From a virus (lineage: Duplodnaviria > Heunggongvirae > Uroviricota > Caudoviricetes), in IMG/VR virus record IMGVR_UViG_2585427746_000005, positions 1-50,193 of that record: a stretch of DNA of 50,193 nt; one strand, given 5' to 3'. The notes below the pieces were generated by a model. The model saw only the letters and a program-made list of their open reading frames with translations. It was not told the origin of the DNA and searched no databases. The translations under genes and the position numbers were made by a program. This document shows positions 698 to 36,144 of this stretch, piece by piece (position 1 is the stretch's first letter; each line of letters begins with the position of its first letter).

Positions 698-1060
698 GGG
701 GCTGATTCTGGATTCGACGGGATTTGCGAAACCCAAGGTGCATGCCGAGGGGCGGTTGGCCTCGTAAAAAGCCGCAAAAAATAGTCGCAAACGACGAAAA
801 CTACGCTTTAGCAGCTTAATAACCTGCTTAGAGCCCTCTCTCCCTAGCCTCCGCTCTTAGGACGGGGATCAAGAGAGGTCAAACCCAAAAGAGATCGCGT
901 GGAAGCCCTGCCTGGGGTTGAAGCGTTAAAACTTAATCAGGCTAGTTTGTTAGTGGCGTGTCCGTCCGCAGCTGGCAAGCGAATGTAAAGACTGACTAAG
1001 CATGTAGTACCGAGGATGTAGGAATTTCGGACGCGGGTTCAACTCCCGCCAGCTCCACCA
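698..1060 (+). ncRNA. ssrA: tmRNA (transfer-messenger RNA)
   Basis: 363 nt starting GGGGCTGATTCTGGATTCGACGGG and ending with tRNA-like 3' end GGGTTCAACTCCCGCCAGCTCCACCA; internal tag frame GCAAACGACGAAAACTACGCTTTAGCAGCTTAA encodes ANDENYALAA-stop. Confidence 0.95.
1016..1060. repeat. attL: 45-bp direct repeat forming the 3' end of intact ssrA
   Basis: ATGTAGGAATTTCGGACGCGGGTTCAACTCCCGCCAGCTCCACCA is repeated identically at 36100-36144. Confidence 0.85.
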
Positions 1061-1071
1061 AATAAAACAAA

Positions 1072-1100
1072 GGGTTACGTGAAAACGTAGCCCTTTTTTT
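1072..1100 (+). terminator. Rho-independent terminator after ssrA (prophage-supplied)
   Basis: Stem GGGTTACG / CGTAGCCC with 6-nt loop followed by T7 run, 12 nt after the tmRNA CCA end. Confidence 0.7.
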
Positions 1101-1176
1101 ATGCCCCGTGGCGGCAAAATGGCGACAGACGTTTGGGCGTGGCGACACAGGCAATAAAAAACCCGCCAGTGGCGGG

Positions 1177-1392
1177 TTAGTATGCAAACTGCTCCTGCAG
1201 GCCTTTTGGATGCGGTGGAGCTGCACTGATTTTCTCCGGGCGGCAAACCGATCGCACAAACGTTTCATGGGTTACAAACGTATGCCCGCATTCAATATTT
1301 GTACATTGGTTGTAACGCTCTTTGGTTTCGCTGGAGACCTGAAAGCTGCTGCGTGTATGTGCTGCCATTCCACACAACGGACAATTCATCAT
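1177..1392 (-). CDS. ogr: Ogr/Delta-type zinc-finger late-gene transcription activator
   Basis: Translation MMNCPLCG...C.NIECGHTF has the Cys4 pattern and length of P2 Ogr / 186 B; start moved to the ATG preceded by AGGGGAG; sits next to the att end as in P2. Confidence 0.8.
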   Translation of the reverse strand: MMNCPLCGMAAHTRSSFQVSSETKERYNQCTNIECGHTFVTHETFVRSVCRPEKISAAPPHPKGLQEQFAY

Positions 1393-1463
1393 GAGCAACT
1401 CCCCTTAATCATTTTTGCTGAAATCGCAATAATGATACACCATAATTCAATATTGAGAACTAA

Positions 1464-2567
1464 TTATTCCATTTCGAGATCATCTATTTTCACCTCAAAA
1501 TCCAGGCTGGTCGTAAATCCGTTATCTGCCGTAACGGTATGGGTCAGCGTGGTAATGGTCCATTCCGCATCATCGATCTGCTTTTTGAACCCCTGCACCT
1601 TTACCGGCATTTCCGTATAGAGATCAGCGCGCCCCTCTGCCAGCTGCATAGAGAATGAGGCCACCCCACGCTGCAGGCGCTCCCATTGCATTTTTGCGGC
1701 CCGTTCCGCGTTGCTGCGGTTCGCATAGGTCCGACTGAGTACCAGCACGTTTTCATCCGTACCGACCAGGTAATCCCCTTGCTTCTCCTCCGGTGTTTTG
1801 GTTTTGGTCGTGGTTGTTTTCCGCTTACGCTTTACCTTTACCGCTTCTTTTTTTACCGGTTCCCGCGTATGCAGCCAGCTGGCAATTACGCCGGTATAAG
1901 CTCCACGGTCTGCCAGCGTAAACCGGTGACTGTCACCATCTTTACGGGTAATAGTGATAACCGGCAGCGCTTTGCCACTGGCAGTTTTACCCTGGCCCTG
2001 CCGGAGAAATAGCAGATTGCCATCTTTCACGGACGCAATAGCGCCATACTGGCGCGCCAGACGCATCAGAAAACTGGCGTCGCTCTCGTTTGTCTGGTCA
2101 ATATGATCGATCGCTTTGTCGGTCAGGTCTTTGCCCAGCGCCATTTTCAGGTTATGGCGCCCGGCTATTTCTTTTACCACCTCCCCCACGGTTGTCTGGT
2201 GCCATGACTTTTCGCGCCTGGTATTCAGCGTTTCCCGGAAGTCAGCACTGCGGGCGCGAATGGTCAGACGGTCAGGCGCGCCACTGTGTTCAATTTCATC
2301 TACCGTATAACCGCCCTTTGGGAACAGCGGCTGACCTTTCCAGCCCAGCGCCACGGTGATCACCGCCCCACGGCGCGGCAGCACAATCAGGCCGTCCGCG
2401 TCGTCCAGCTCCAGATCAAGCTGGTCAGCCTCAAAGCCCCGGTTATCGGTCAGGGTCAGGCTCATCAGGCGCTTATCCAGCACCGTTGTAATATCCTTAC
2501 CCTCAATCGTGACGCTGAATGCTGGCGTTTTGCTGCCGGTAGTCAGCAGCCCTGAATCTAAACTCAT
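1464..2567 (-). CDS. Tail protein D (P2 gpD-like)
   Basis: 367-aa ORF, ATG start, ATGA overlap with the upstream U gene; position and size match P2 gpD. Confidence 0.8.
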   Translation of the reverse strand: MSLDSGLLTTGSKTPAFSVTIEGKDITTVLDKRLMSLTLTDNRGFEADQLDLELDDADGLIVLPRRGAVITVALGWKGQPLFPKGGYTVDEIEHSGAPDRLTIRARSADFRETLNTRREKSWHQTTVGEVVKEIAGRHNLKMALGKDLTDKAIDHIDQTNESDASFLMRLARQYGAIASVKDGNLLFLRQGQGKTASGKALPVITITRKDGDSHRFTLADRGAYTGVIASWLHTREPVKKEAVKVKRKRKTTTTKTKTPEEKQGDYLVGTDENVLVLSRTYANRSNAERAAKMQWERLQRGVASFSMQLAEGRADLYTEMPVKVQGFKKQIDDAEWTITTLTHTVTADNGFTTSLDFEVKIDDLEME

Positions 2568-3049
2568 GACAGTAAACCTCCCACCGTTCCGCTGATGCTT
2601 CCAATCGCAGACGTTGCCGTGTTCTGCAGAATGCCCAGCTGATCGCTAAGGCTGCCGAACATATCCGCCAGCGACTCATCCACCCTTTTCAGTGACAATG
2701 AGAACTCAATGCGGCGCGGCATCCCGTCACGGAAAAATTCTGCTTTCGTCTGGTTCAGCCCCTCGATCACATACATGCCATAAATCGTGCCACTTCCCTC
2801 GATCAGGGGCCACGCCTTGCCCAGCTCCGCCATCTGTTCCAGCGCCAGCATAGACAGCCTGCCGCCGGTGATTTCCGGTAACAGCACCCCGGATAGTGTC
2901 AGCGTGTCATTATCCGGCCCCAGAAATTGCGTGGTGGCGCGACGGTTTACGCGGCTGTTTGTCGCATGGCGCCAGCTACGCTGATACTGCAGCTCCTGAT
3001 AAGGGACCGTGCGCAGTTCGAAAACAAATAATCCCAGCACCATCATCAT
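2564..3049 (-). CDS. Tail protein U (P2 gpU-like)
   Basis: 161-aa ORF between the tape measure gene and D; overlapping stop/start codons on both sides. Confidence 0.8.
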   Translation of the reverse strand: MMMVLGLFVFELRTVPYQELQYQRSWRHATNSRVNRRATTQFLGPDNDTLTLSGVLLPEITGGRLSMLALEQMAELGKAWPLIEGSGTIYGMYVIEGLNQTKAEFFRDGMPRRIEFSLSLKRVDESLADMFGSLSDQLGILQNTATSAIGSISGTVGGLLS

Positions 3050-5841
3050 TCGTCATAGCCCCCCTGATCGCTGTAGTTACTCCGGGCCTTCGCCCTGATC
3101 CGGCGGTCACGCTCATCAAGCTGGCGCGCCACCTCTCGCGCAATGTCCTGCGCATTCTGCCCTGGCTGCGCCTGGATAATAATCTGCGTGGGCGCGTCCA
3201 CATGGAAAACTGGCTGCGCGCTTGCGCCCTGCCCCATCATCACGGCGCCCGATTTCACCGGCAGGCTAAACGGATGAAGCGGGGCCGCATCGGCCGGCGC
3301 CGCAGCCACCCCCATCATCCCGGCAACCACCGAGGCCAGCGCCGCTGTGCGTCGCCTGCTGGTTACGTTTACCGGGCCGTTGATAATCTCCGGGCCGTTC
3401 TCCCCCACGATGCCAAACTGCCCGCGCGGGATATTACCGCCGGTGTCATACATCCCTGCATAAGCCGGAAACCCGCCGGGCGGCAATATCACGCTGCCGT
3501 TACCGCCCAATGTGGCAGGCGTCTGATTTGGCAGCCTGGCGCTGGCGGCCTCTTTGTTAACCAGACCAAGTTTATCCAGCAACCAGACCACACCGGATTT
3601 CAGAGACTCCAGCGGATGCAGTGCCACGTTCAGCCCTTCCGCCAGCATTTCCCCGAACAAACGCCCCATTGATGCCGCACTCTGCAGCTCTGCCGCCGTC
3701 GATTTAACTGGCGTCAGCAAGTCGGTAAACCAGCCCCACAACTCCCGGACCTTATCCCCTACCCATTGAAATATGGGCATCAATGGCGCAAAGGCTGACA
3801 GAATTGGCTCAGCTGCAGCTTTAAACCCTTCCACCACGCCCCCCAGAAAGGCGCTGATAGGCTGCCAGTATTTCCAGACCACCATCGCCACCCCAGCCAG
3901 CGCAGCCACCACCAGACCGATCGGACTCAATAGCGCGCCCAGCAGACCGCCCACAGAAAACAGCGCCACGCGCAACACTGCCAGCGGGCCTGAAACCAAC
4001 AAACGCAGCACCCCGCCCGTACGGGTCACTGCAGCTGCGGTAGAAGGTAAAGCCTTAACCGCCAGCATCGACAGCGCGAACCGGATCACCGCAATCGGCC
4101 CCAGCACTGCAGCCACCGCCACCGCCAGCGTACCCAACCCGACAGTGATCGCCGCCGTCGCCGCAGCCACTTTCATCAGCGTGCCAGCCAGCACGGGATT
4201 CTGCTCAACCCAGCGCCGCAGCGCCCCTGTCACGCCTTTAACCATGCTCATGATATCCATCAGCGGCTGGCGCAGCGTTTCCCCCAGGCTACTGAAAGCG
4301 TTCTGCGCGCCCGTCTTAACCAGCAACCACTGCGCAGACAATGAATCTTTATTAATGTCGGATTCTTTCTGCATTGAGCCGTTCGCATCAGCTCCGGCGG
4401 TGAGTTTCAACTGGCGCTGCAGCTCCAGCAGGTTGTTAGCCAGTTTCGCGGCATCATCGCCAAACTCTTTACCAAAAATCATCGTCATTGCTGACAGGCG
4501 CTTATCCTGCGGCAGCTTGTTGACCTTCTCCAGTACGCGCTGAATAGTTCCCATGGCATCCGTGGTCATCTGCTTTTCAATCTCTGCCGGATTGAGTTTC
4601 AGCAGGTCCATACCTTCAAAAAAGCGTTTGCTTTGCATGGTGGCAATGGAAAGCTCACGCACCATGGCATTAGAAGCGCTGGCGGCAATTTCAGGCGCGG
4701 CGCCCAGAGAAAGGAAGGTTGAACCCAGCGCCGCCGCTTTGCGGAAGTCGAGGCGGTCAGCCACGCCCCCCATGCGCTGCAGGACGTTGATAATATCCCC
4801 GCCCTTTGACATGGCGTTATCGTCCAGGTAGTTCAGCGCATCACCCAACTGCTCAATATTGCGCGTAGGCACTTTATACAGCTGCGCTATTTTTCCTAAC
4901 CCTTCCGCCAGTTCATCTGCAGGCAATTCAAAGGCCGTTGCTGCTTTAGCCGCAGTGGAGGCAAAGGCCAGCAGATCGCGCTTCTGGTCCTCAAAAGGAT
5001 CATCCTGATTGATCACGCCCATGCGGGCGCCCCCCTCAACTAATGCCGCGTAGTCAATCGCGCCGTTCTCCATCGGCAACTGCTCACTGGCTGCTTTGAT
5101 GGCATCCTGCATTTCATAAAACTGCTTTGTGCGGTTGCCGTTGTCGTCACGCAGTCCGTTAACCTGTTTTGCCACGCCTTTCATGGCATCTTCCATGCTG
5201 GCATAGCTCCTGACCGCAGCCACAACCGGTGCCCCCATCGCTGCGCCAGCGGCTGCCGTTGTCGCCCCGGCGCCAGCGATGCGATCACGAACTTCAAGAC
5301 GGCGGGAATACTGCTCACGGACCGCATTCATTCGCGCCTGCTGTTCCCCCAGGCGTTTGAGTGATTTTTGCTGGCGGTCCAGCGCCTGCCGCGTTTCGTC
5401 AGCATTCTGCCGTAGCGTGCGCTGGGCGGAACTCAGATTTTTTGTACTAATACCCGCAGCACTTAATTCATCCCGCTGCCGCTGGGCAGATTGACGCAGC
5501 CCGTCAAAGGTATCTTTTAGCTGGCTGGCACGGCGTTTAGCCTGCTCCAGTTCTTTCGCCTGTTTTTTTGTCGGATTGCTGGCTGCAGAAAATGCATTCG
5601 CCAGTTCAGATACTTTCTGGCGCGCAGCCGCAAGATCGTGTTTTGCCCCCTCGAGCTGGGTGCGGACCTTGCGGAATCCATCAATACGGGCGGCCTGTGA
5701 ATCAAGCGCTTTGAGGCTGGCGCGGCTTTGCTGGATTGCGGCTGCCAGCTCCTTAGAGCTGGCCTGCGCAGAACGGAAGGGGCGGGTGAGTTTATCCACC
5801 GCATTCAGAATGACCTGCAGGCGCAGGTTGTTATCGCTCAT
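3046..5841 (-). CDS. Tail tape measure protein (P2 gpT-like)
   Basis: 931-aa Ala/Gln-rich helical protein with hydrophobic central block, GGAG SD; position between E and U. Confidence 0.9.
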   Translation of the reverse strand: MSDNNLRLQVILNAVDKLTRPFRSAQASSKELAAAIQQSRASLKALDSQAARIDGFRKVRTQLEGAKHDLAAARQKVSELANAFSAASNPTKKQAKELEQAKRRASQLKDTFDGLRQSAQRQRDELSAAGISTKNLSSAQRTLRQNADETRQALDRQQKSLKRLGEQQARMNAVREQYSRRLEVRDRIAGAGATTAAAGAAMGAPVVAAVRSYASMEDAMKGVAKQVNGLRDDNGNRTKQFYEMQDAIKAASEQLPMENGAIDYAALVEGGARMGVINQDDPFEDQKRDLLAFASTAAKAATAFELPADELAEGLGKIAQLYKVPTRNIEQLGDALNYLDDNAMSKGGDIINVLQRMGGVADRLDFRKAAALGSTFLSLGAAPEIAASASNAMVRELSIATMQSKRFFEGMDLLKLNPAEIEKQMTTDAMGTIQRVLEKVNKLPQDKRLSAMTMIFGKEFGDDAAKLANNLLELQRQLKLTAGADANGSMQKESDINKDSLSAQWLLVKTGAQNAFSSLGETLRQPLMDIMSMVKGVTGALRRWVEQNPVLAGTLMKVAAATAAITVGLGTLAVAVAAVLGPIAVIRFALSMLAVKALPSTAAAVTRTGGVLRLLVSGPLAVLRVALFSVGGLLGALLSPIGLVVAALAGVAMVVWKYWQPISAFLGGVVEGFKAAAEPILSAFAPLMPIFQWVGDKVRELWGWFTDLLTPVKSTAAELQSAASMGRLFGEMLAEGLNVALHPLESLKSGVVWLLDKLGLVNKEAASARLPNQTPATLGGNGSVILPPGGFPAYAGMYDTGGNIPRGQFGIVGENGPEIINGPVNVTSRRRTAALASVVAGMMGVAAAPADAAPLHPFSLPVKSGAVMMGQGASAQPVFHVDAPTQIIIQAQPGQNAQDIAREVARQLDERDRRIRAKARSNYSDQGGYDE

Positions 5842-6282
5842 CGCTGGCTCCGCTTCTCTGTATCGCTTTGTACCGCCATTCCAGCACTTCGGTCAGCGGC
5901 ATAACGTCAGTGACGGAGGGCGGCCAGTGAAAAATGGTGGCAATATCTGCCACCAAATCATCTACCGTCAGGCAGTCGGTAAACCGGCAAGCACCGACTT
6001 CTTCAACAAAAAAGTGACCACCTCAACAGACAACGAGGTGAGATCGGCGGGGTCCAGCTCTGCCATTTCCTGCGGCGTCAGCGTCGGGGTGGAAATGCGG
6101 GGGATCACCGTCATCATGGCGCCCACATCCATATCCATAAGGGCCTGCAGGCGCGTGCCACGCAGTGCGCCGGATTGCGGCTTACGCAGTACAATTTCAG
6201 TGATTTCAGTTTTACCGCGCTTGATTGGGGTATCCAGCTGCACAGTCTTTTCAGTCAGTTTATCGCTCATTATCTTTTCCAT
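5831..6282 (-). CDS. E+E' fused tail chaperone made by programmed -1 frameshift
   Basis: -1 frame after the slippery site stays open for about 56 codons and ends at TAA 5831-5833, just past the T start codon; total about 147 aa, as in P2 E+E'. Confidence 0.6.
5968..6282 (-). CDS. Tail assembly chaperone E (P2 gpE-like)
   Basis: 104-aa ORF directly upstream of the tape measure gene; carries the T-TTT-TTG slippery heptamer near its 3' end. Confidence 0.75.
   Translation of the reverse strand: MEKIMSDKLTEKTVQLDTPIKRGKTEITEIVLRKPQSGALRGTRLQALMDMDVGAMMTVIPRISTPTLTPQEMAELDPADLTSLSVEVVTFLLKKSVLAGLPTA
6007..6013 (-). other. Slippery heptamer T-TTT-TTG (programmed -1 ribosomal frameshift site)
   Basis: Minus-strand reading GTC ACT TTT TTG TTG AAG in the E frame; heptamer position verified by codon-by-codon translation. 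Confidence 0.7.
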
Positions 6283-6319
6283 TAGGGTTATTGCGCGGCC
6301 TGCCGCGCCATCAGGTTAA

Positions 6320-6835
6320 TCAGAGGCCAATTGCGTTGCGGTGTTCTTCCAGCAGGTCCACACCATCACAAATTTCGACCATATTGATAACATCGACCTC
6401 ATAGAGCACCTCACCGGCGATCGTCAGCTTCGCATAGGTATTGGTGCTGCTGACCTTCGTGGAATTGCTCTCGCCCGTTTTCAGTTCGCCAGCATCCACC
6501 TCTTTATGGCGCCCACGTACAACCAGCTCAACCGCCTGCACTTCGCCGGTATCGTCACGCTGAATTGAGCCAGTGAAACGCAGCTGGATGCCGTCGACAG
6601 TGGCTTTCCCCATCTGCTTGTATAGCAGTGACTCCATACCGCCAATTGAGAATTCGGTATCCAGCGCGCCATCATCCAGCCCCAAATCCACATCTGCAGA
6701 TCCCGGCATCCCGCCGCCGCGATATTTTTCAAACTTGCGTGAATACTTTGGCAAGGTGATTGACTCAACAATCCCCATCCAGTTGTTCCCGTCGTTAAAC
6801 AGGTTCAGGTGCTTTAACTTGCGTGGTAATGCCAT
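6320..6835 (-). CDS. Major tail tube protein (P2 FII-like)
   Basis: 171-aa ORF, ATG start, directly downstream of the sheath gene. Confidence 0.85.
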   Translation of the reverse strand: MALPRKLKHLNLFNDGNNWMGIVESITLPKYSRKFEKYRGGGMPGSADVDLGLDDGALDTEFSIGGMESLLYKQMGKATVDGIQLRFTGSIQRDDTGEVQAVELVVRGRHKEVDAGELKTGESNSTKVSSTNTYAKLTIAGEVLYEVDVINMVEICDGVDLLEEHRNAIGL

Positions 6836-6844
6836 GTATCCCCC

Positions 6845-8017
6845 TTATGCGCTGACGCGGCTGGCAAAATCGACCAGATAGCGATCGGTGATGCGCTGGC
6901 GCAGCATCAGATTTTCAAGCGGCGGCACTGGCGTATAGTCGTAGTCGATCGCCAGCTTCCCGGCTTTCAGGGTGTCCTTATCGTTCACCGACTCATCCAG
7001 CCAGCAATCACCACCAATCAGATAGCCCTGGTTAACCAGGCTGCGCATTTTGGCGCGGATACCTTCGATAATGTCGCGGGCCAGTGATGGATTCAGCGGC
7101 ATATCAACTGCCCACATATGCGCTTCCGCCATGGTGTCAGCCAGCACCTGCGCCGTGCGGGTGTAGTTTTCAAACTGGAACAACGGATCATCACTGAGGC
7201 AACGGGAACCCCAGAAGCGGAAACCGTCTTTACGAATGAGGGTGGTGATATCGTTCTGGTTAAGCAGTCCCGCATCCGTTGCCGGGTCCTGCAGATCCCA
7301 GGACACATCAGCGGACAGGCCAGTGACGCCATTCACGCCCACGTTAGACAGGGTTTTGTGCCAGCCGGTCTGCTCGTCAATTTTGGCGCGCATACCCAGC
7401 GCGCGAGCGGTGGCAAAAGCCGTCGCATCCGCCTGCAGCACGGTGTCAAAGTTGATAAAGTCAGGCCAAATCAACATCCCTTCACGCTGGCTGAAATTCT
7501 CACGATAGGCGATCGCTTCCTCCACCGTTTTGCAGCCATAGGCGGAAAGGTAAGCGAACCCGCGCAGGCTCTGCGCCACGCTAAGCAGTTCAGTGGAAAC
7601 CGCCTGCGTATCATGGCCCGGCACACCGAGGATGCGCGGCTTAACGCCCAGCTGCGACTGCGCAGACAGCAGCGCTTTGATGCCCGTTTTTTTACCGTCT
7701 GCCGTGACGCCGCCGATAATATTGGCGGTGGTTTCAGCTTCGGTTTCACCCTGGGCCACGCGGATAACCACGGTGACAGGCTTTGCCTGATCTGCAATAG
7801 CATCCAGCGAGCGGGCCAGCGTGCCGGACTCGCCTGCTTTGCCGCTGGCGGTCAGCACATCGGTCAGAAGGACCGGCTTATTGAGGGGGAACACGGACGC
7901 ATCGGCATCATCGCCGGTGCAGACCATGCCCACGATGGCAGTGCTCACCGTGGTAATCGTTCGGGTGCCTTCGTTGATTTCTTCAACGCGCACGCCGTGG
8001 TGGTAATCCTGAGCCAT
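6845..8017 (-). CDS. Contractile tail sheath protein (P2 FI-like)
   Basis: 390-aa ORF, ATG with GGAGA SD; first gene of the FI-FII-E-T-U-D operon. Confidence 0.9.
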
Positions 8018-8089
8018 AAGGCATTATCTCCGGTTGACAGGGATGCCTTATGTTCTGGTTGATACGCACGCGGCGCACGTTTTTCTGCC

Positions 8090-8107
8090 TGTGCCATCAC
8101 TGACACA
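8090..8107. promoter_or_regulatory. Candidate Ogr-dependent late promoter dyad TGT-N12-ACA upstream of FI
   Basis: TGTGCCATCACTGACACA, centred about 81 nt upstream of the FI ATG. Confidence 0.45.
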
Positions 8108-8119
8108 ATAACGGGGTTT

Positions 8120-8677
8120 TCAGCCTGGCTGGCTGGCGGGAAATTTCTTATACAGCGTGGAAATACCCACATCAAAAAGCAGCGCCACGCGCTGACGTGT
8201 TTCACCTGCAGCCAGTAACCGCCCGGCCTGCGCCCATTGTTCCTGTGACAACTTTGGACGGCGCCCGCCGATTCTCCCCTGCGCCCTTGCTGCTGCCAAT
8301 CCCGCACGGGTTCTTTCCACAATCAGTTCACGCTCCATTTCAGCCAGGGCGCCCATAATGTGGAAGAAAAAGCGCCCCATGGGTGTCGAGGTATCAATGC
8401 TGTCCGTCAGACTGCGGAAATTAACAGCCCGCTGCCGCAGTTCCTCCACGAGAACCACCAGATGCCGCATACTGCGCCCAAGTCGATCAAGCTTCCAGAC
8501 AACCAACGTATCTCCCGGTGACAGGGTTTTAAGCAGCTTTTTTAATCCGGGGCGGTCCGATGTTTTACCGCTCATTTTGTCCTCAAATATCAGTTCACAT
8601 CCTGACCGCTCCAGCGCATCACGCTGCAGTGCCGTGTTTTGTTCATTTGTTGATACGCGTATATATCCCACTTGCAT
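8120..8677 (-). CDS. Site-specific DNA invertase (Hin/Gin/Cin/Pin family serine recombinase)
   Basis: MQVGYIRVSTNEQNTALQRDAL...LVVWKLDRLGRS...GRRPKL...ISTLYKKF is near-collinear with Hin/Gin; start moved to ATG with GAGGGA SD; abuts an inversion site. Confidence 0.9.
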   Translation of the reverse strand: MQVGYIRVSTNEQNTALQRDALERSGCELIFEDKMSGKTSDRPGLKKLLKTLSPGDTLVVWKLDRLGRSMRHLVVLVEELRQRAVNFRSLTDSIDTSTPMGRFFFHIMGALAEMERELIVERTRAGLAAARAQGRIGGRRPKLSQEQWAQAGRLLAAGETRQRVALLFDVGISTLYKKFPASQPG

Positions 8678-8731
8678 CTGCTTTCCCTCACGCAAAACCC
8701 CGAATGATGCCAGCCAGGCAGAAAAACTGCA

Positions 8732-8757
8732 TTTTCTTAAACGTTGGTTTAAGCGAA
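8732..8757. repeat. Left inversion site (hix/gix-like)
   Basis: TTTTCTTAAACG-TT-GGTTTAAGCGAA; half-sites resemble the TTATCCAAAACC consensus; core TT. Confidence 0.6.
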
Positions 8758-9423
8758 TCGTTTTCAGGCCGGGTTTTACGGGTAAAAAAAATTACTGCCA
8801 GCCAGTTATATGAATGGCCTGATGATGTTGATGATATCGACGTAACCATTGTCGCCGGTGGTGGCGGTGGAGGCGCCGGGGTATCCGTTCCTGTGGGGTA
8901 TTGTTCTGCTGGTTCAGGTGGCGGCGCCGGTGGTTCGGCACGCTCACGGTATAAGCGCGGGGATGTACCGCTCGCTATTCAGATAGAAATTGGTGCAGGT
9001 GGTAAAGGTGGTATTGCGGACGGCGCACAACCGACCAGCGGCGGCAATACAAAATTTGGTGAGCTTATGCTTGCTGAAGGGGGAGCAAGAGCCGCAAACG
9101 GTCTTGCCTTTCAGCAGACTGGCGCGTCTATGTTGATAGGCAATGGCGGCGGCGGTGCAGCGTATGGCGGCAATCTGTTTTCCAGTCGTGGAGGCTCAGG
9201 AACGCCAGCGGTATTCCTCAGCAATGGCTATGAGTCTGGGGCCGGTGGCGATTCAGTGTTTTCTTTCGGCCCACCGCCGTTAACAACAAATATCAGCGTT
9301 GCCGGTTATGACGGTGTGGATGGTGCTGGCGGCGGCGGTGCTGTCATTATTGAAAATACCGCCGGTCGAGATGGTGGCGATGGTGGCGATGGTGTTTGCC
9401 TGATTGTGGAGTATTCAAAATGA
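8746..9423 (+). CDS. Alternative tail-fibre C-terminal segment (silent orientation, no own start codon), glycine-rich
   Basis: Open frame continuing from the left site core in the same codon phase as H; gains an N-terminus only after inversion; stop overlaps the tfa' start (ATGA). Confidence 0.55.
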   Translation, partial: GLSESFSGRVLRVKKITASQLYEWPDDVDDIDVTIVAGGGGGGAGVSVPVGYCSAGSGGGAGGSARSRYKRGDVPLAIQIEIGAGGKGGIADGAQPTSGGNTKFGELMLAEGGARAANGLAFQQTGASMLIGNGGGGAAYGGNLFSSRGGSGTPAVFLSNGYESGAGGDSVFSFGPPPLTTNISVAGYDGVDGAGGGGAVIIENTAGRDGGDGGDGVCLIVEYSK

Positions 9424-9806
9424 ATCGTTTTGCGATTATTGATAAAGGAGTTGTGATTAACATTGTCAGCGCTATCAACCCTGCTGATTTAAATTACCCG
9501 GCATCGGATGTTATCGACATTGGTGATATGAGTATTGAGCGCGGATATATTCTTTCTGGCGATGAGTTTTCAGCCCCACCGAAAACAAAAGATGAAGAAA
9601 TCTCCGCTGCTTATCAGTTAAAAATGAGGCTAACATCGACCGCGAGAGAAATTGTTTCGACTTTACAGGCTGATTTATTACTAGGTGAAATCAGTGATGA
9701 AGATAAAGCGCGCCTGATTGAATGGCGCGCCTATCTGAAAAAAATGGAAACTATTAATATTCAGGATGCGCCGGGCATTAACTGGCCTGAGTCACCGGCG
9801 GTGTAG
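9420..9806 (+). CDS. Tail fibre assembly protein (alternative cassette)
   Basis: C-terminus ...RLIEWRAYLKKMETINIQDAPGINWPESP matches the conserved Tfa C-terminal motif. Confidence 0.75.
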   Translation: MNRFAIIDKGVVINIVSAINPADLNYPASDVIDIGDMSIERGYILSGDEFSAPPKTKDEEISAAYQLKMRLTSTAREIVSTLQADLLLGEISDEDKARLIEWRAYLKKMETINIQDAPGINWPESPAV

Positions 9807-10380
9807 GCCATACGGGTTTTGTTGTATCAACTCGCATCAGCAAGACCCTGTATTTTATCCATTCAGCCAGCGCTGCGGTTTCTCCTTTCGTCGCGATTCC
9901 TGAGTTAACAGCATCCTGTCGCCATGCTATTTCAGAATCAGCCGCACCGCGAAGTTGTGATTTTTTCCGCTCAGCATCGGCTACATCCGCCGCCTGTTGA
10001 GCATCTGCGTCCGTCACCCACTCGCTACCGTTCCATATGTCATATGCGGTTGTCGGGGGTAATGTTGTCACGCCGTCAGCATAATCGCCCAACGCACCAA
10101 CAACAGATGATTTCCCGGTCATTGTGTCATACACAATATCCCCTCGATGGTCAGCGACATACATCCAATCGCTCAAATCAGCATTACGACAAATAGCAAA
10201 CCCATCTTTATTTTTGGGTGGCGCATCTGTGCATGAACTGGCTGGAATGCCAACACCTAAGGGAAGATATTCAACCGAACGGCCAATATATTCGCACGTC
10301 GTTTTATCATAGTTATAAACAATAATATTCCCTGCTGTTGTGGCAATATCATTTGCGCCTAAAATAGCGTCATTCATCAT
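9778..10380 (-). CDS. Tail fibre assembly protein (currently expressed cassette)
   Basis: C-terminus ...ALAEWIKYRVLLMRVDTTKPVWPTPP; ATGA overlap with the H stop. Confidence 0.8.
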   Translation of the reverse strand: MMNDAILGANDIATTAGNIIVYNYDKTTCEYIGRSVEYLPLGVGIPASSCTDAPPKNKDGFAICRNADLSDWMYVADHRGDIVYDTMTGKSSVVGALGDYADGVTTLPPTTAYDIWNGSEWVTDADAQQAADVADAERKKSQLRGAADSEIAWRQDAVNSGIATKGETAALAEWIKYRVLLMRVDTTKPVWPTPPVTQAS

Positions 10381-13007: not shown

Positions 13008-13353
13008 TTTCAGCTCCTGTCGATATGGAAAGAGAAACTGCGGCGCCATCGTTGCGCTGCCCGGAAAGCTCCACCACCATCGAGCCATCAAAATTTGTGC
13101 TGATAGAAATGGCATCCAGCGTCAGGCGAGGTTCCCAGCGGCTCAGCGCCACATAAACGGCAGACATAACCTGCAGGCGCAGCGCCGGGTTCTGAGGCTG
13201 ATCGATAAGCTCAGAAAGCAGCGAGCCATATTCCCTGCGGGCAATCCGGCTGCCCTGCGGCGTCAGCAAAATATCCCGCACCGATTGGCGCAAATGGTCC
13301 GTATCCGTGATCGCTTTTCCGTTGGTCTGACTCATGCCCAGATACATCGTCAT
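12994..13353 (-). CDS. Baseplate protein W (P2 gpW-like)
   Basis: 119-aa ORF, ATG start, ATGA overlap with V stop. Confidence 0.8.
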   Translation of the reverse strand: MTMYLGMSQTNGKAITDTDHLRQSVRDILLTPQGSRIARREYGSLLSELIDQPQNPALRLQVMSAVYVALSRWEPRLTLDAISISTNFDGSMVVELSGQRNDGAAVSLSISTGAENGSN

Positions 13354-17058: not shown

Positions 17059-17061
17059 AGT

Positions 17062-24087: not shown

Positions 24088-24106
24088 AGCCACTCCTTAT
24101 GATGTA

Positions 24107-27399: not shown

Positions 27400-29862
27400 T
27401 CAATACCACTGCCGCCATTTGTCATCTTCCTGCAGTCGCTGGTTCCGGTAAAAAAGCCGCAGGCCAGCGCCAGATGGGATACTGCCACCTCGCAGAAGCA
27501 AATCGATCTCCCTGTCACCGCAGTCAAAGCCCCTGGACTGCAGCTCATACTCCAGCTGCAGACGCTGCTGATCGCTGATTTCCTGTTTATAGCCTCTTCG
27601 GCGCTTCGGTTTTACCAGCCGCAGACGGGTGTTTAACTCACGCAGTTCCTTTTTCCCCATTCCATGCAGGTATTCCTGCAGTGTTTGGTCATCCATGGTC
27701 GTTATATCAGGTGCAGCTGGCGCAGTTTTCGCCCCTGATTCGTTCAAATTTTCCACAAGGGGACAGTTATTGCCACGAGTCCAAGGGGCGCTAGCGCCCT
27801 GGTCGGCTGACGCCTCCTGCAGGTCAACGTCAACGGCCTTACGAACCATTTTCCATTTCACCGCGTGCGTACAAATCCGCCCTTCCTGAATAGGGGACCA
27901 GACGCCATAGATACGGATACCATGATCGCCATAAGTACTCGGCTCATCGTTCAGCTCGTAGGCTGTTCTGACCAGATGGTGTTTACGAGGGACCAGCACG
28001 CCGCCTTGCGCCATGACGTAAGTGGCAAAGCAACCGGCATCTGCCGCAGCCAGCACAGCATCAAGACGCGGATTGCCGATAACAGGCCGCGCATTTGCAA
28101 GGGCCACCAGAATCTCTGGCGTTAGTTCAGGTTTCCCCGGTACGGGTTTTAATGGCGGAAGGTCGCGTTTAGCCTGGCCCGCCAGCAGTCGCAGCTCACG
28201 GTAAGCCTGGCGGCCCGGAATACCGAAGAAGCGGAATTGCTGGACGCGATGCAGTGATGCCCAGGCGTTCACGTTCTCCGCGTTATCACGCAATGATTTG
28301 CCGGTTTCCTTGCTGACTTCATTAGCCAGGCCGCGCCCATCAATATTCTTACTGATGTATTTAGCGATGTAGCTGGTTGGCGTGCCTTTACGCGGATTGA
28401 TTAGCTCAGACTTAAAGCGCGGGCCGGTATTGTTTCCCAGCTCCTCGCGGTCCTCACGAATGGCAAACTTGCGCAGCAGCTCCGTGATCGCTTTGCGGTG
28501 TTTCTTGCGCATAAAGCACAGCAGGTGCCAGTGCACAGTGCCATCATGATGAGGCTCAGCGACTCGCACCCCGTACCAGCGCAGCCCGGCTTTATGCATG
28601 GCCTTACGGAATGCGGCGAACGTATCAACCAGATAATCACTGCTCTGTCGCACTGTAGCGCTGGTCCATTTCGGGTTTGGTCTGCCATTGTTGAGCGTGG
28701 CGTGGAAGCGTGACGGGCAAGTGATGGTATAAAACACGGCACAGTCGCCGCGCATTTCCGCGATAAGCTCCAGCCCTTTAACACAGGCCATCATTTCGTT
28801 ACGGCGGTGCGCCGGATTGCTGGCGCTGGCGTTTACCACATCCTCTAAATCCAGCGTGTCGCCCTGCTCATTGGTCAATTCGTGTGAGCGGAAAAACTCC
28901 AATGATTTACGGCGCTGTTCGCGCTTATGGATCACTGCTTCATAGCTGACATATGGCGACGCCTTTTTATTTACCAGGCACACTGCGCGCAGCTGCTCCT
29001 CGCGCCACTCACAGCGCATCTGCCATAATTTGCGATACCACCAATCCGCGCACAGCATACGCGCCAGCGAGCCGGGAATAAGCTCATAGGGCACAGGCTT
29101 GCGGCGGCGTTTCTTACGTCGCAAACGCTCAAACGCTGGCGGGATAACATCAAGGCGCATCGCTTCCGCTGCAACCAGTTCCCACGCCTGGCGGATTTCT
29201 TCCGGCTTCACTTCGTCAGTGGAATAGAGATCACCGCAGGCAGCTTCCAGACACATGCTCATATGAGCCGCAACCAGCGTGGACAGGCGTTTGACCTGAT
29301 CCTGATTCATTTCAGGCAGAACCAGCAGCCCTTCCAGCCCTTCATGGCTCGCCATGAATCGGAAAGAAGCAGACACCTGGCTATCACGCGCACGCGCCAG
29401 CCGTTCAAGGCATGGCCTGACGGTTTCACGCAGATAACGGGAATATGCCTGCGGACGGCCCAGACTATGGAAGTATTTAATACGCTCAAGCAGGGGTTTG
29501 CTGATGTGTGATGGCTCGGCGCTTACGTCTGCCAGAACCACCAGATCGGGATTGACTCGCTGCTGCTCGCGGGCCATTTTGGCGTGGCTGATCAGCCGGT
29601 CCTGCTCCATTTCACGCAGAACTGGATCACGGGCTTCGTTATAAAAATAGCGTTCCCAGACCTCATCACTCAGTTCCTCGCGACGCAGCCGGTCCTGCTC
29701 ATTGTCAGCGGCATACAAAGTGATCAGGTTTGAAAGCGCAGATACCGGCGCAACTTCCGCCGGGTCCGTGTATGGGTTAATCGCTTTTGGGGTTTTGTTC
29801 CAGGCAAAAGCAGCGGCGGCATCATGTACGCCGCCGTGGTTTTTAACATCGTGATCGCTCAC
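27400..29862 (-). CDS. Replication initiation endonuclease A (P2 gpA-like)
   Basis: 820-aa ORF with GTG start overlapping the Dam stop; size and position typical of P2 gpA. Confidence 0.85.
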
Positions 29863-30800
29863 GCTTGCGCCTCATCACTTATTTGATTCGCCGCGGCAGA
29901 GCCTAGATGGCAATAGTGCCATCCCTCAGGATGGCTAGTGCTTCGACCGTATCGTTCACAAACGATCCGAACCTCCTCGCCAGGGCCAGCAAGATCAACG
30001 CCATGCCAAAGAGGCGGTATCGACACTGCGATGATTTCAGCTGCAGATTTACCTTCTCCGGCAGCCACGCCCATGCTGCGTTTTGCATTGATGCAATTGC
30101 GGGTAAAGTTGCGATAAAGGGAGCGAGTCAGGGGCGTATCGCTATTGGACACGACGACCGGATGACCTTCTGATGTGCGACGTTCAAGAATAGACGCCAG
30201 ATGATACTGATCATCCTCGGTAAATCCGTCAGTGTGGTAAGTAGAAAATGCACCGTCATACGGAGGGTCGCAGTAGATAACATCCCCCGACTGCAGCATT
30301 GCCAATGTTTCCTCATAGCTGGCGCAAATGAAGGTGGCACGCTTTGCCTTTTCGGCAAATGCACGTATTTCATCAACGGGCAGATAAGGTTTTTTGTAAT
30401 TACCGTACGGGACGTTAAACAGGCCGCGCTGGTTATAACGGCATAACCCGCGATAACAATGGCGATTAAGGAAAAGAAAATAAGCCGCCTTGTCCATGTA
30501 ATCCAAAGGCGCAGTATTAAAATACTGTCGGCATTTATAATAGGCTTCTTCCGTTGTGAACTTAGAAAAAACTCGCTCAGCCAAGTGAATAAATCCGTTA
30601 ACATCATCTTTAATTGCTTGATACAGATTTATCAGATCAGGATTAACATCTGCGACAAGATAATGAGGATAGTCTGTCGCCATCATGACAGCGCACGAAC
30701 CCGCGAAAGGTTCAACAAGGCGCTGGCCTGCTGGCAGATGCTTTTTCAGCTCCGGCATGATGGCTGTTTTATTGCCAGCCCATTTCAGGATAGTGCTCAT
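29859..30800 (-). CDS. DNA adenine methyltransferase (Dam-like)
   Basis: [11 protein letters not shown]...LVEPFAGS...DPPY... matches N6-adenine MTase motifs I and IV. Confidence 0.9.
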
Positions 30801-32402: not shown

Positions 32403-32912
32403 TCACAGCAGGCCGAACGACGCGCCAAGGCCCGTCATTGTATCAACGGCACTACCCATCGCCGGGCTGGACTGCAGGCGCGCCTGCATCGATACCGCGG
32501 TTAATGCCATCAGGCGAGTAACAGAGTTGATACTGTCGATAATCTGGCGGCGGCCTGCAGTCGTCAGTTGCTCACCGGAAACAGCACCGGCAGCGACGTG
32601 CCCAATCTCAGCCGTTGCTTTAAGGACGTACTGCGGCATTTTCTCTTTTGCCACTTCATTCAGCGGCACGCACGGCAGGCAATGGATTTGTGCCAGGAAA
32701 CCATCAACCAGCGTGGAGTCCTCAGTGATATCTGTCAGCCCCCAGATTTCCGGCGGGGTAAGCTGATGAGGCTGGTCCGGGTTCAGCTTGTTGCGCAGAG
32801 TCTGGACGTTCATTCCGGCGCTGGCTGCCAGCTTCGCCATGTTGTGACGCAGCGCGAAAGCGCGGCAGGCTTCGTCAAAGTGCGGATGTTTGGAAATCTT
32901 ATAATCAAACAT
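32403..32912 (-). CDS. CII-like lysogeny establishment regulator (186 CII-like)
   Basis: 169 aa, same length as 186 CII, with an HTH-like segment; position after apl. Confidence 0.65.
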   Translation of the reverse strand: MFDYKISKHPHFDEACRAFALRHNMAKLAASAGMNVQTLRNKLNPDQPHQLTPPEIWGLTDITEDSTLVDGFLAQIHCLPCVPLNEVAKEKMPQYVLKATAEIGHVAAGAVSGEQLTTAGRRQIIDSINSVTRLMALTAVSMQARLQSSPAMGSAVDTMTGLGASFGLL

Positions 32913-32944: not shown

Positions 32945-33187
32945 TTATTGGCCAACAATGACGCGGAAGTTGGAATGACCGAGGGATTCGCGAACCTGGT
33001 CGGTTTTGTACATCAGGTAACGCAGGCTTACGCGACCTTTGTTTTTTTCTTTCTTGACCATGTACTTAGCAAGCTGACCATGGTGAATTTTCTGGTAAAC
33101 AGAGCCACGGGAGATACCTTCCCATTCAGCGAACTCTGCAGGCGTAGCCATCTCTTTTGGTACACGAATTGAAATATCAGTGCTCAT
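32945..33187 (-). CDS. Apl/Cox-like excisionase/transcriptional regulator
   Basis: 80-aa HTH protein (ATPAEFAEWEGISRGSVYQKI) divergent from cI, first gene of the lytic operon. Confidence 0.6.
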   Translation of the reverse strand: MSTDISIRVPKEMATPAEFAEWEGISRGSVYQKIHHGQLAKYMVKKEKNKGRVSLRYLMYKTDQVRESLGHSNFRVIVGQ

Positions 33188-33306: not shown

Positions 33307-33939
33307 ATGATACAGGTGAAAGCTGGCGAGAATACCGGGGGAAGAGAGGCTATCCATAGGCTAATGGCTGCCTATGATTTCAAATCCAGACAACAGCTGT
33401 GCGATCACCTGGGCGCATCAAAAAGCACCATGGCAAACAGATACTTAAGAGATAGTTTTCCAGCGGAATGGGTGATTCAGTGTGCTTTGGAGACAGGGGT
33501 TTCTTTACTGTGGCTCACTACCGGACAGGGTGAGACAGGTTCAAACATTGACCATAAAAAAGGTATCAATTTCGTGAACTCTGGCAAAGTTAAACCCCTT
33601 TCTGAGCTTGTCTCCCCCGAAATTGATAAGGCAACTCTCAACGGTGGTTTATTGGTCGATGCTGGAAAAGCAATCATTGATAGCAGCCTGCTCCCCTCAG
33701 ACTCAAGCAACCTATTGCTGGTGAATACTTCTGGAGATTCTTACTTAGTGGACCGCAGCCAAACACCTCCAGTTAACGGTATGTGGTTGGTAGATATCGA
33801 CGGAATAAAAAGCATTGTTAAGTTAACACGGCTACCAGGAAACAGATTAGTGGTCCATCAAGACGAATCATCCTTTGAGTGCAGTCTTGATGATATCGAG
33901 GTAGTCGGACGCGCATTAAAAATAATTAAGAGCCTTTGA
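33307..33939 (+). CDS. CI immunity repressor (186 CI-like)
   Basis: CALETG..LLWLTTGQGE and LWLVDIDGIKSIVKLTRLPG align with 186 CI as recalled. Confidence 0.8.
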   Translation: MIQVKAGENTGGREAIHRLMAAYDFKSRQQLCDHLGASKSTMANRYLRDSFPAEWVIQCALETGVSLLWLTTGQGETGSNIDHKKGINFVNSGKVKPLSELVSPEIDKATLNGGLLVDAGKAIIDSSLLPSDSSNLLLVNTSGDSYLVDRSQTPPVNGMWLVDIDGIKSIVKLTRLPGNRLVVHQDESSFECSLDDIEVVGRALKIIKSL

Positions 33940-33940
33940 T

Positions 33941-34969
33941 ATGACCATCAGAAAGCAGCCAAACGGAAAATGGTTGTGTGAATGCTACCCGAACGGGCGA
34001 GACGGCAAGCGTGTGCGCAAACAATTTGCGACGAAAGGCGAGGCCATAGCATTCGAAAACTTCACCATGGATGAAGTAAACAAAAAGCCATGGCTTGGTG
34101 AGAAGGAAGATCGTCGGCGCTTGTCAGAAGTAATTGAGCAATGGCACTCACTCTACGGGCAGACGCTTGCAGATCCCAAACGCCTGATGGCGAAACTTAA
34201 AATTATCTGTAATGGTCTGGGCGATCCCATCGCTTCAGAGCTGACCGCCGGTGACTTTACGAAATACCGCGAAGCACGGTTAAAAGGTGAGGTGCGAAAT
34301 GAAGATGGCGCGCTTATGTCACCAGTTAAGCCTCGCACGGTAAACCTTGAACAACGCAACCTATCATCCGTGTTTGGCACACTGAAAAAGTTGGGCCACT
34401 GGTCAGCACCCAACCCACTCGCCGGTTTGCCAACATTTAAAATCGCAGAAGGTGAACTGGCGTTCCTGACACCGGAAGAAATTAAACGCCTGCTGGATGC
34501 CTGCGCTGATTCTCAAAGCCCCAGCCTGCTGATGATTGCAAAAATATGCCTGGCAACTGGTGCACGCTGGAGTGAAGCCGAAAATCTGCAGGGCCATCAG
34601 TTATCGAAATACCGGATCACCTATACCAAGACTAAGGGCAAGAAAAACCGTACCGTGCCGATATCTCAGGATCTGTATGATGAACTTCCCAAGAACAGAG
34701 GGAAGTTATTCACCCCGTGCAGAAAAGCTTTTGAGCGTGCAGTAAAACGGGCAGGTATTGAGCTGCCTGAAGGCCAATGCACTCACGTGCTGCGTCATAC
34801 GTTCGCCAGTTATTTTATGATGAATGGCGGAAACATACTGGTATTAAGAGATATTCTGGGCCATGCCGATATAAAAATGACGATGATTTATGCACATTTT
34901 GCACCTGATCATCTAGAGGATGCAGTAACAAAAAACCCTTTACATGGATTAAAATGGACCTCACCATGA
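33941..34969 (+). CDS. int: Tyrosine integrase (P2/186 Int-like)
   Basis: 342 aa with C-terminal ...HVLRHTFASYFMMNGG...LGHADIKMTMIYAHF (R..H..Y catalytic signature). Confidence 0.9.
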   Translation: MTIRKQPNGKWLCECYPNGRDGKRVRKQFATKGEAIAFENFTMDEVNKKPWLGEKEDRRRLSEVIEQWHSLYGQTLADPKRLMAKLKIICNGLGDPIASELTAGDFTKYREARLKGEVRNEDGALMSPVKPRTVNLEQRNLSSVFGTLKKLGHWSAPNPLAGLPTFKIAEGELAFLTPEEIKRLLDACADSQSPSLLMIAKICLATGARWSEAENLQGHQLSKYRITYTKTKGKKNRTVPISQDLYDELPKNRGKLFTPCRKAFERAVKRAGIELPEGQCTHVLRHTFASYFMMNGGNILVLRDILGHADIKMTMIYAHFAPDHLEDAVTKNPLHGLKWTSP

Positions 34970-35985
34970 TTCTAGAATTAATAACTAGCAATATAAAAAA
35001 ACCAGAAATCTCTATCTTATTAATAGCTCTGTATTTAATTTACTTATTTATAGAATATACAAAAAATAAAAATAACAGTTATTTTGAAATGACTGAGGAA
35101 AGACTAACAAAACAAAAACTATTCAAACAATCAATAAGAATACCTGTTATTTCATCTTTATATTTTGGTGTCTTCGCATGGGTGGGACACTCCCCTCAAT
35201 TTGATGCTACAGGATTTAAAAACTTCATTGAAATAAGCAAGTTGCCTATTGCTCTTCTGTCTCTTTCGATACCATTTGTAGCCATAGTTGCTAACATTCA
35301 CAGAACAATACAAACCGAGAATCAAATTAGAAAAACACAACAACAGATAGATTTAGTAACCGAGAAAAACCGCAGTGATGCTTACTACGCTCACCTAAAA
35401 AATTATTCTGATATATTTAAAACACTGCCATCATTTACCCTCTCTCGCCGTGACAATACAACCTTTGAAAAAGGTACTGTTAAATTATCTGTGGATCATA
35501 CATATTCATTATATAAAAAAATATTCACAAAATCCTCAATCTCTGCTGGATATAACAGCGAGGTTGATAAAAAATTCCTTAGACAACTAGAAAACATATA
35601 CACTAGCATCGGGAATGCAATAATAAGAAACAATGAAATTTACCCAAGTCAAGTGAGCATATCTAATTTAGAGAACATTGAAGCGCTAGTGGTATTTTTG
35701 TGTAGAGAACTAGGTGTCAATTATGAACGAGAAGTTAACAAATTCGATATATTTGACCCAATTTCAAATTTAGGAATAGAAACATCATTTTCAGATGAAA
35801 AAGAGATCAAAGAAATGCTACGAGGCTTAAGGGACATATTGATATCTCTTTACATGCTAATTGATCAAAATACAATTATTTTTCAAGGCAATGCCAATAG
35901 CGGCGATTTTTTAGCTAATTATGCTTACGACCCAGATAATTTGATTTTTAAAGATATCTTACCTATAGATTCTCAAGGTAAATAA
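34954..35985 (+). CDS. Cargo: predicted multi-pass membrane protein, function unknown
   Basis: 343-aa AT-rich ORF with three hydrophobic segments near the N-terminus; sits between int and attR. Confidence 0.65.
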   Translation: MDLTMILELITSNIKKPEISILLIALYLIYLFIEYTKNKNNSYFEMTEERLTKQKLFKQSIRIPVISSLYFGVFAWVGHSPQFDATGFKNFIEISKLPIALLSLSIPFVAIVANIHRTIQTENQIRKTQQQIDLVTEKNRSDAYYAHLKNYSDIFKTLPSFTLSRRDNTTFEKGTVKLSVDHTYSLYKKIFTKSSISAGYNSEVDKKFLRQLENIYTSIGNAIIRNNEIYPSQVSISNLENIEALVVFLCRELGVNYEREVNKFDIFDPISNLGIETSFSDEKEIKEMLRGLRDILISLYMLIDQNTIIFQGNANSGDFLANYAYDPDNLIFKDILPIDSQGK

Positions 35986-36099
35986 TTGGCGACACTTTGG
36001 CGGCAGAGCATTAAAAACGTATAAAACAGACAAACATCAGATAACACTAAGGCACTGATTTAAAACATAAACTACTGTTTTTATTATAGTAAAAATGGT

Positions 36100-36144
36100 A
36101 TGTAGGAATTTCGGACGCGGGTTCAACTCCCGCCAGCTCCACCA
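36100..36144. repeat. attR: displaced 45-bp copy of the ssrA 3' end
   Basis: Identical to 1016-1060; followed by a second integrase gene. Confidence 0.85.

Follow-up and report, generated by a model that had tools for sequence, protein, structure and literature searches.

The DNA considered here, the IMG/VR virus record IMGVR_UViG_2585427746_000005 (50,193 nt, referred to below as the window), carries a P2-like prophage and the beginning of a second integrative element, an island, placed one behind the other at the 3' end of ssrA, the gene for transfer-messenger RNA (tmRNA). The sequence is that of Escherichia coli, and its first 1.1 kb is found in 5426 of the 5426 complete E. coli genomes, with a top identity of 99.7%. 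The conserved chromosomal gene to the left of the array is smpB (1–483, + strand, 99.5–99.7% identity to annotated E. coli smpB). It is followed by an intact full-length ssrA (698–1060, + strand), recognised both by ARAGORN, which reads the tag peptide ANDENYALAA, and by the Rfam model RF00023 (295.8 bits). The prophage occupies positions 1062–36099 (ca. 35.0 kb), with its ogr end adjoining the intact ssrA and its int end adjoining a displaced copy of the ssrA 3' end, while the island extends from 36146 to about 56615 (ca. 20.5 kb), the first 14 kb lying inside the window.

The preliminary description of this DNA, made from the letters alone, reported a perfect direct repeat of the 45-bp ssrA 3' end bracketing the prophage. 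The last 45 nt of ssrA indeed occur as exact copies at 1016–1060 and 36100–36144, and the identity reaches one base beyond the CCA end, giving a repeat of 46 bp (1016–1061 and 36100–36145, both on the + strand) whose copies are spaced by 35,084 bp. No further copy of the ssrA 3' end with up to three mismatches is present in the window, and none arose in 100 shuffles. The first copy is the 3' end of the functional gene and the attL core of the prophage; the second, a displaced gene fragment, is the prophage attR core, its last ca. 13 nt being also the attL core of the island. The 46-bp block occurs 5968 times across the 5426 complete genomes, with a maximum of four per genome. In the terms used by Islander for tandem arrays, the locus has an intact target gene at one end (ssrA, 698–1060), a gene fragment in the same orientation for each element (the 46 bp at 36100–36145 and 13 nt lacking T357 at 56603–56615, the latter sitting outside the window and read from a window-identical contig), and a separate tyrosine integrase for each element (33941–34969 and 36311–37540).

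The bracketed element is a gene-complete P2/186-like (Peduoviridae) prophage, as judged by its PHROGs and Pfam gene set and by nucleotide similarity. Its tyrosine integrase, specific for ssrA (33941–34969, + strand, Int_N and Phage_integrase domains), is 96% identical to that of Salmonella phage SEN8. The attP site was rebuilt by joining window positions 35986–36145 to the sequence from 1062 onward, and was searched for in phage records. It is uninterrupted in the genomes of the free phages SEN8 (query 2–277), Cartapus (2–234) and MLG42 (2–227), and in Cartapus and SEN8 it lies between int and ogr and matches the prophage ends. Both these phages share the identical 46-bp block, followed by AAATAAA(A/T)CAAGGGGTTACGTGAAA(A/G)CGTAGCCCC-T5, which is the terminator found at window 1062–1103. 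Since the same block and terminator form part of the attP of free phages, the intrinsic terminator now standing behind ssrA (1069–1103, + strand; a 12-bp stem at 1069–1096, then T7; −20.4 kcal/mol, z = −6.8) is phage DNA, part of the P' arm of attP, as had been proposed. The accompanying proposal that the ssrA 3' end itself was supplied by the phage stands for the portion of the 46 bp located 3' of the crossover, which would be phage DNA too; the identity of the two copies hides the extent of this portion and, with it, the crossover point. attL is thus composed of the ssrA body, the core and the phage P' arm, and attR of the P arm, the core and the DNA that formerly adjoined ssrA.

A second terminator follows the displaced copy, as the preliminary description had noted. 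It is of the ssrA type (36180–36213, + strand) and comprises the stem GCCCGCA...TGCGGGC at 36180–36207 and T6. The sequence flanking attR in the window is, by alignment, the sequence flanking ssrA in AST198 (NZ_AP043606.1), the second terminator included; in AST198 the same island lies directly behind an intact ssrA and the prophage is absent. The identical flank assigns this terminator to the island and shows that it serves ssrA where no prophage is present. Its analogue in K-12 is the ssrA terminator lying within CP4-57.

The second copy of the repeat was also said to open a separate island with a P4-type integrase, and such a gene is found at 36311–37540 (+ strand). Its product shares 49% identity with K-12 IntA and belongs to the same P4/CP4-57 type; it contains the domains Arm-DNA-bind_3, Phage_int_M and Phage_integrase, and NCBIfam PRK09692 is matched at 445 bits (cutoff 434). 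The far end of the island lies beyond the window and was read from contig JOQQ01000002.1 (GCA_000714175.1), found by exact-protein look-up, which shows no mismatch to the window over 24954–45985 (segment L007) and 38928–50193 (segment L009) and runs 10 kb past the window end. About 6.4 kb beyond the window this contig reads ...ACAGGGA-CGCCAGCCCACCA-ATCATGATTGGACGG..., followed by ypjA. The third att copy contained there is CGCCAGC-CCACCA, a 13-nt core at L009 17676–17688, equivalent to window position 56603–56615, and corresponds to the ssrA end CGCCAGCTCCACCA minus T357; the flank ATCATGATTGG... starts right after it and leads to ypjA. The search for a third copy advised in the preliminary description was thus borne out in part: a short att copy without T357 is present some 6.4 kb on, and no third 45-bp repeat exists. 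The refutation named there, the lack of any further att copy downstream, therefore fails. A search with 25 nt and up to three mismatches finds no third long copy in the window or in AST198, and the short one was located with the help of the K-12 'psaA' annotation and a short-core search. The prophage and island integrases differ greatly in the length of the identity block at the same gene end (46 bp for the former, ca. 13 nt for the latter).

The same T357-less remnant precedes the same flank in K-12, where it is annotated as 'psaA' at the end of CP4-57, and CGCCAGC-CCACCA stands at the far end of the island in the source contig JOQQ01000002.1 and in seven other loci. A search with the DUF6387 gene of the right end, made in one genome per species, showed that in a Kluyvera genome, as in an unclassified enterobacterium, the same right arm ends in ACAGGGAC(G/C)CCAGC-CCACCA. 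The DNA past the arm differs in these genomes, being a P4-satellite-like left end in one case and a CP4-57-like left end in the other. Altogether, the T357-less core is seen before three different downstream sequences, in three genera. Its retention before unrelated DNA indicates that the missing T travels with the right end of the island and is not the outcome of local decay.

A fourth, fossil att copy, GCCAGC-CCACCA, also without T357, is located between pinH and ypjB, downstream of ypjA (28971–28982 in the K-12 locus L002, 29822–29833 in the AST198 locus L001 and 20169–20180 in locus L015). A CP4-57-like right arm lies before it, and behind it come ca. 75 nt of a P2-like P' arm with the phage terminator. 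The ypjA–pinH segment looks like an older layer of the stack, in which a P4-type island was apparently once inserted before a P2-like prophage.

Comparison with empty sites was likewise advised in the preliminary description. Of the 5426 complete E. coli genomes, 1389 cover at least 80% of a query in which intact ssrA is joined directly to the ATCATGATTGG... flank, a number that is the upper bound for strictly empty sites, as the search joins pieces up to 0.8 kb apart; the 12 empty-site matches listed are direct joins in a single piece with 100% identity. These joins define the island ends exactly. The island DNA of the window (36146–50193) is 100% identical to that of AST198 and is present at a coverage of at least 80% in 53 complete genomes, the best 20 records listed being at least 99.8% identical. 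The junction comprising the P arm of the P2-like prophage, the ssrA fragment and the left end of the island (35990–36420) is at least 80% covered in 64 complete genomes. Among them is GDSC2227PM, whose P2-like prophage is partly deleted; behind it stand the same integrase, recombinase and ParB genes, with a different island cargo, a type I restriction-modification system and McrBC.

Two loci bear on the order of arrival. Over the island and the right flank AST198 differs from the source contig by six mismatches and one gap in 24,048 bp (99.97% identity), and it differs from the left flank of the window by one mismatch in 1,060 bp. With the locus nearly identical and the prophage absent, the two differ essentially by one clean 35,084-bp unit, either gained or lost. 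The other locus is the metagenome contig k127_10473 (ENA; L006), in which the 11.19 kb leading up to the core, the right end of the same prophage, match without a single mismatch. Its 46-bp copy is followed, at 11375–21032, by a true P4-like satellite with genes for an integrase, UvrD-like, OLD/TOPRIM-like, Psu, Ogr/Delta and AlpA proteins and a primase; this contig holds a helper prophage and a satellite in tandem at ssrA. Both loci are what would be expected of a phage that integrates into the intact gene irrespective of the DNA following it, and together they favour the order 'island first, phage second'. Most likely the island was already beside ssrA when the phage landed between the two.

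Taken together, the locus is best explained, with a probability that we put at roughly 0.88, as a case of tandem accretion in which two independent integrative elements came to lie at the 3' end of the tmRNA gene of E. coli, and the idea of successive integrations at a single tmRNA site put forward in the preliminary description agrees with the exact island ends, the prophage-free AST198 locus and the third att copy. According to this explanation the prophage integrase would recombine attP, which carries the 46-bp ssrA copy and a terminator of its own, with ssrA; integration would rebuild the gene from phage DNA at attL and would move its former 3' end, with the DNA behind it, 35 kb downstream to attR. 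The second element would be a 20.5-kb integrative mobilizable island with the CP4-57/P4-type integrase on the left, a relaxase in the right half, an AlpA-type regulator near the right end, a low-G+C, defence-like cargo, and an att core of ca. 13 nt at the very end of ssrA. Several points weigh against tandem accretion in this form. Precise excision may have removed the prophage from AST198, or the island may have inserted into the displaced fragment once the phage was in place. The right-end core is eroded further in two E. coli loci (L010 and L017), and the third att copy lies outside the window and is known from one identical contig. Moreover, the island is worn, with an IS3 fragment and truncated DUF4928 pieces, and every statement on the mobility of either element is deduced from sequence.

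The reverse order, with the phage integrating into an empty ssrA and the island then into the displaced 46-bp fragment at attR, is improbable. The ca. 13-nt core of the island is contained in both copies, either of which is formally a possible target, and the fossil copy of K-12 and AST198, in which a CP4-57-like right arm is joined to a P2-like P' arm, provides a precedent. In that fossil case, however, the later island took the position adjacent to ssrA and not the distal one; in AST198 the same island with the same flanks, 99.97% identical, lies directly on ssrA without a prophage, and in L006 the identical prophage right end precedes a different downstream element. A slightly lower probability is given to the view that the second element is an immobile, integrase-associated remnant and not a discrete island. 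The IS3 scar, the truncated genes and the degenerate right-end core, more eroded in some strains, speak for it; yet the ends are exact against up to 1389 empty sites, the far end has its own att core, and in other genera different DNA adjoins the same right arm with its core. The integrase, AlpA-type regulator and relaxase reading frames are intact as well, and a near-identical island is present in 53 genomes.

The P4/CP4-57-type integrase, the AlpA-family gene and the adjoining P2-like prophage bring to mind a P4-like satellite exploiting its neighbour as a helper, the more so as a true tandem of helper and satellite exists, with the same prophage, in L006. For the island of the window this is very unlikely: its 20.5 kb hold no Psu, Sid, Ogr/Delta or alpha primase-helicase gene, and a relaxase, ParB-like proteins and a serine recombinase are encoded instead. 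With the hallmark genes absent, the satellite reading was rejected. That the repeat arose by chance, by local duplication or through faulty assembly has a negligible probability, given that the 100 shuffles gave no match, that the two prophage ends join seamlessly in free phage genomes, and that the same structure recurs in an independent NCBI contig and in 64 complete genomes; on these grounds this reading counts as refuted.

The position of the prophage bears on the fate of tmRNA. Excision of CP4-57 is reported to delete T357 of ssrA and thereby to inactivate tmRNA (PMC10107115); U357 makes a G-U pair in the acceptor stem, and its loss shifts ribosome rescue to ArfA/RF2 (PMC10107115). The island resembles CP4-57 in that its right-end att copy lacks T357, and departs from it in that its left core is not within the functional ssrA: it lies at 36100–36145, 35 kb from the end of the working gene at 1060. 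With this core in the non-functional fragment, the island should no longer be able to alter the working tmRNA by excising. Its departure on its own would leave ssrA as it is, and excision of the prophage alone would restore a perfect ssrA; the T357 deletion could reach the gene only by loss of both elements or by their joint excision as a 55-kb unit (copy 1 × far-end core). We tentatively propose, as a possibility rather less probable than its opposite, that the T357-less core is a constant part of the right end of P4/CP4-57-type ssrA islands, all of them able to switch tmRNA off on leaving, and that a P2-like prophage lying between ssrA and the island acts as an insulator. If this were true, excision of the island would edit only a dead gene fragment. 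A T357-less core that travels with the island fits the published outcome of excision only awkwardly, since that outcome requires either an exchange 5' of T357 or the inclusion of T357 in the overlap.

The gene content of the prophage follows the P2 plan. Over the first 24 kb, 59–66% of the length aligns at 80–84% identity to Peduoviridae records. The best-matching ones, Yersinia phage MLG42, Klebsiella phage Kp4865-2 and Salmonella phage SEN8, align over 63–66%; others among them are the Salmonella phages RE2010 and SopEPhi, Fels-2 and Escherichia phage Cartapus. The right-hand 11 kb is found at a coverage of at least 80% in none of the 5426 complete E. coli genomes. The P2-type genes, in P2 order, comprise ogr, D, U, T, E, tube, sheath, fibre, baseplate and S/R, and the set also includes lysis and head genes, both terminase subunits, portal and gpA. 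The first gene after attL codes for an ogr-type activator of late transcription (1177–1398, − strand; phrog_603, 3.7e-25), and is followed by the tail genes D, U, tape measure, E, tube and sheath (1464–8017, − strand; phrog_52, 76, 28, 103, 55 and 23), the tube gene bearing the PHROGs label 'head closure'. A DNA invertase (8120–8695, − strand; phrog_125, 2.2e-93) comes next, then, on the opposite strand, reading frames for a tail-fibre C-terminus and assembly protein (8560–9806, + strand), and then tail-fibre assembly and tail-fibre genes (9778–11489, − strand), with matches to tail-fibre PHROGs. The invertase beside the opposite-strand tail-fibre reading frames (8120–9806) suggests an invertible host-range segment; no inverted repeats of at least 18 nt are found around it (7900–11600). 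Baseplate, tail completion, lysis, head, small and large terminase and portal genes, assigned by PHROGs and Pfam, occupy 11486–23344, with the head genes, the two terminase subunits and portal at 20544–23344. The region 27400–30800 (− strand) codes for the gpA replication protein (27400–29862; Phage_GPA, 3.3e-131) and a Dam methylase (MethyltransfD12, 1.4e-67).

The lysis–lysogeny switch is of the 186 type, with genes for CII (32403–32912, − strand; phrog_101), the Cox/Apl excisionase (32945–33187, − strand; phrog_6912) and the CI repressor (33307–33939, + strand; phrog_575, Phage_CI_repr and Phage_CI_C). The completeness of the gene set and the mismatch-free second copy of the right end elsewhere are the points that argue for recent activity of the prophage.

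Cargo genes are present at three positions of the prophage. Three low-G+C (32–40%) reading frames at 23392–26232 (− strand), between portal and gpA, a usual cargo position of P2, match the PADLOC models Hp1 (2.3e-66), Hp2 (5.1e-39) and Hp3 (1.7e-09), and for the first of them the contig annotation records PF26115 PDDEXK_GAPS4; the Hp1–Hp2–Hp3 cluster is a candidate three-gene defence system. Between baseplate V and tail-completion S a DUF2971 gene of 36% G+C is inserted (14034–14927, + strand), which matches the PADLOC candidate PDC-S31 (1.9e-39). The third cargo gene, situated between int and attR (34954–35985, + strand, ca. 31% G+C, 343 aa), belongs to phrog_17460, of unknown function, and has no match in Pfam, PADLOC or NCBIfam. 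In related prophages the right-hand region is annotated with dCTP deaminase, TIR, HNH and DUF2971 genes; if this cargo is taken to be placed between int and attR, the gap may be a further cargo hotspot.

The island has a G+C content of 31–41% over 37–49 kb, as compared with ca. 50% in the flank. Downstream of the integrase gene lie genes for a large serine recombinase (Resolvase and Recombinase domains) and two ParB/RepB-like proteins (ParB_N and RepB; 37823–41158, + strand). Together, the genes for the recombinase (ca. 520 aa) and for the two ParB_N/RepB proteins (ca. 298 aa each), with stops that overlap, make up a conserved cassette of three, found in the same order and sizes on Piscinibacter and Burkholderia plasmids (L024 4923–8328 and L025 4971–8310), where the recombinase is 44–46% identical. 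On the Piscinibacter plasmid the cassette directly follows the Tn7-like tnsA/tnsB/tniB/tniQ genes. For the recombinase by itself, matches just as close are found on plasmids of Sphingobium, Agrobacterium, Ensifer and Lactiplantibacillus. The cassette proteins have only sub-threshold or generic domain matches in NCBIfam, with no specific family above its cutoff; the PADLOC scan, which took in the recombinase and not the ParB-like proteins, gave no match for it, and a literature search for a recombinase–ParB–ParB module returned nothing relevant.

Farther on, in the low-G+C cargo, genes for a RelA/SpoT-domain protein and for a NACHT-type protein with an NA-iREase2 N-terminus abut (42211–45221, − strand; domain search and RefSeq annotation). 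The two are a candidate defence pair, probably directed against phages; the NACHT protein has no match in the 2023 version of PADLOC. An IS3 scar, DUF4928 fragments and an ankyrin protein gene are also carried.

The window ends at the stop codon of a gene for a MobA/VirD2-type relaxase (48928–50193, + strand; Pfam Relaxase, 1.6e-22, with a weak TraI/MobA(P) match). About 14 tandem GCCAGT units are contained in this gene (49749–49844), in equal copy number in AST198; judged by the reading frame, they should encode a Pro-Val repeat. Beyond the window, an AlpA-family regulator and a DUF6387 protein are encoded near the right end, and the integrase, AlpA-type regulator and relaxase reading frames are all intact. 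Also beyond the window, three tandem 49-bp repeats (AST198 20188–20334) lie ca. 430 bp upstream of a gene for a 187-aa protein (20766–21329) with weak HTH_36 and phage Rep-O matches, and could serve as an iteron-type replication origin of the excised island.

By its gene content the island would be classed as an integrative mobilizable element (IME) and not as a P4-like satellite. It encodes integration and excision functions of its own (the integrase and the AlpA-family protein), is bounded by att cores at both ends and has a mobilization gene, that for the relaxase, with no type IV secretion system or coupling protein gene among its ca. 20 reading frames; no oriT was identified in it. A P4-type integrase is present, and psu, sid, delta (Ogr/Delta) and the alpha primase-helicase gene are absent throughout the 20.5 kb (the window and the remainder in AST198 and L009).

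The locus is an ordinary, recurrent example of a well-known integration hotspot. What is new is a prophage to which no phage of the collection is closely related, an island family known from genome annotation and, as far as the searches went, not from any description, and the proposed insulating role of the prophage. The value of the locus lies in its being a clean and fully delimited example, with three att copies, both terminators and the empty-site and island-only references known. In it, the terminator, and possibly the last nucleotides, of an RNA gene of essential quality control come from a phage, and the two elements carry several candidate anti-phage genes at known cargo positions. The parting of the island from the working gene by the prophage should change the effect of island excision on tmRNA relative to the published CP4-57 case.

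Among known systems, the ssrA-integrating Peduoviridae (SEN8, Fels-2 and SopEPhi of Felsduovirus and Cartapus of Elveevirus) share with the prophage the attP design, with the block and terminator between int and ogr, as well as the P2-like late-gene order, the 186-like switch and, in SEN8, an integrase 96% identical. They differ from it in that only 59–66% of the first 24 kb is alignable, at 80–84% identity, and in cargo, which in the prophage of the window consists of the DUF2971/PDC-S31 gene, the Hp1–Hp2–Hp3 cluster and the reading frame next to attR. The island has in common with CP4-57 of K-12 (IntA, AlpA) the position after ssrA, the integrase family (49% identity, PRK09692), an AlpA-family gene, a terminator supplied by the element and a right-end att copy without T357 abutting the same flank before ypjA. 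Nevertheless, the two differ entirely in gene content: where CP4-57 carries P4-like replication genes, together with the RnlAB and YpjF/YfjZ toxin–antitoxin pairs, the island has the relaxase, the serine recombinase, two ParB-like genes and the NACHT and RelA/SpoT pair. The right-arm sequences also differ, and the island is parted from the working ssrA by the prophage. With IMEs, which are often found in tandem with prophages (PMC5704250), the island shares its own integrase, an AlpA-type regulator, a MobA/VirD2-type relaxase and the absence of mating-pore genes; it differs in that it yielded no oriT and has no known helper conjugative element, and its mobilization is predicted. The E. coli tmRNA locus has been described as a defence hotspot (#9) occupied by prophages, P4-like satellites and IMEs (PMC10121019), and tandem arrays, with a gene fragment and an integrase per element, are a defined category, the tmRNA gene being the most enriched target (PMC4383910). 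The present array does not differ in principle from such arrays at tRNA and tmRNA genes, its sole particular feature being the pairing of an element with a 46-bp att and one with an att of ca. 13 nt, the distal copy of which lacks T357.

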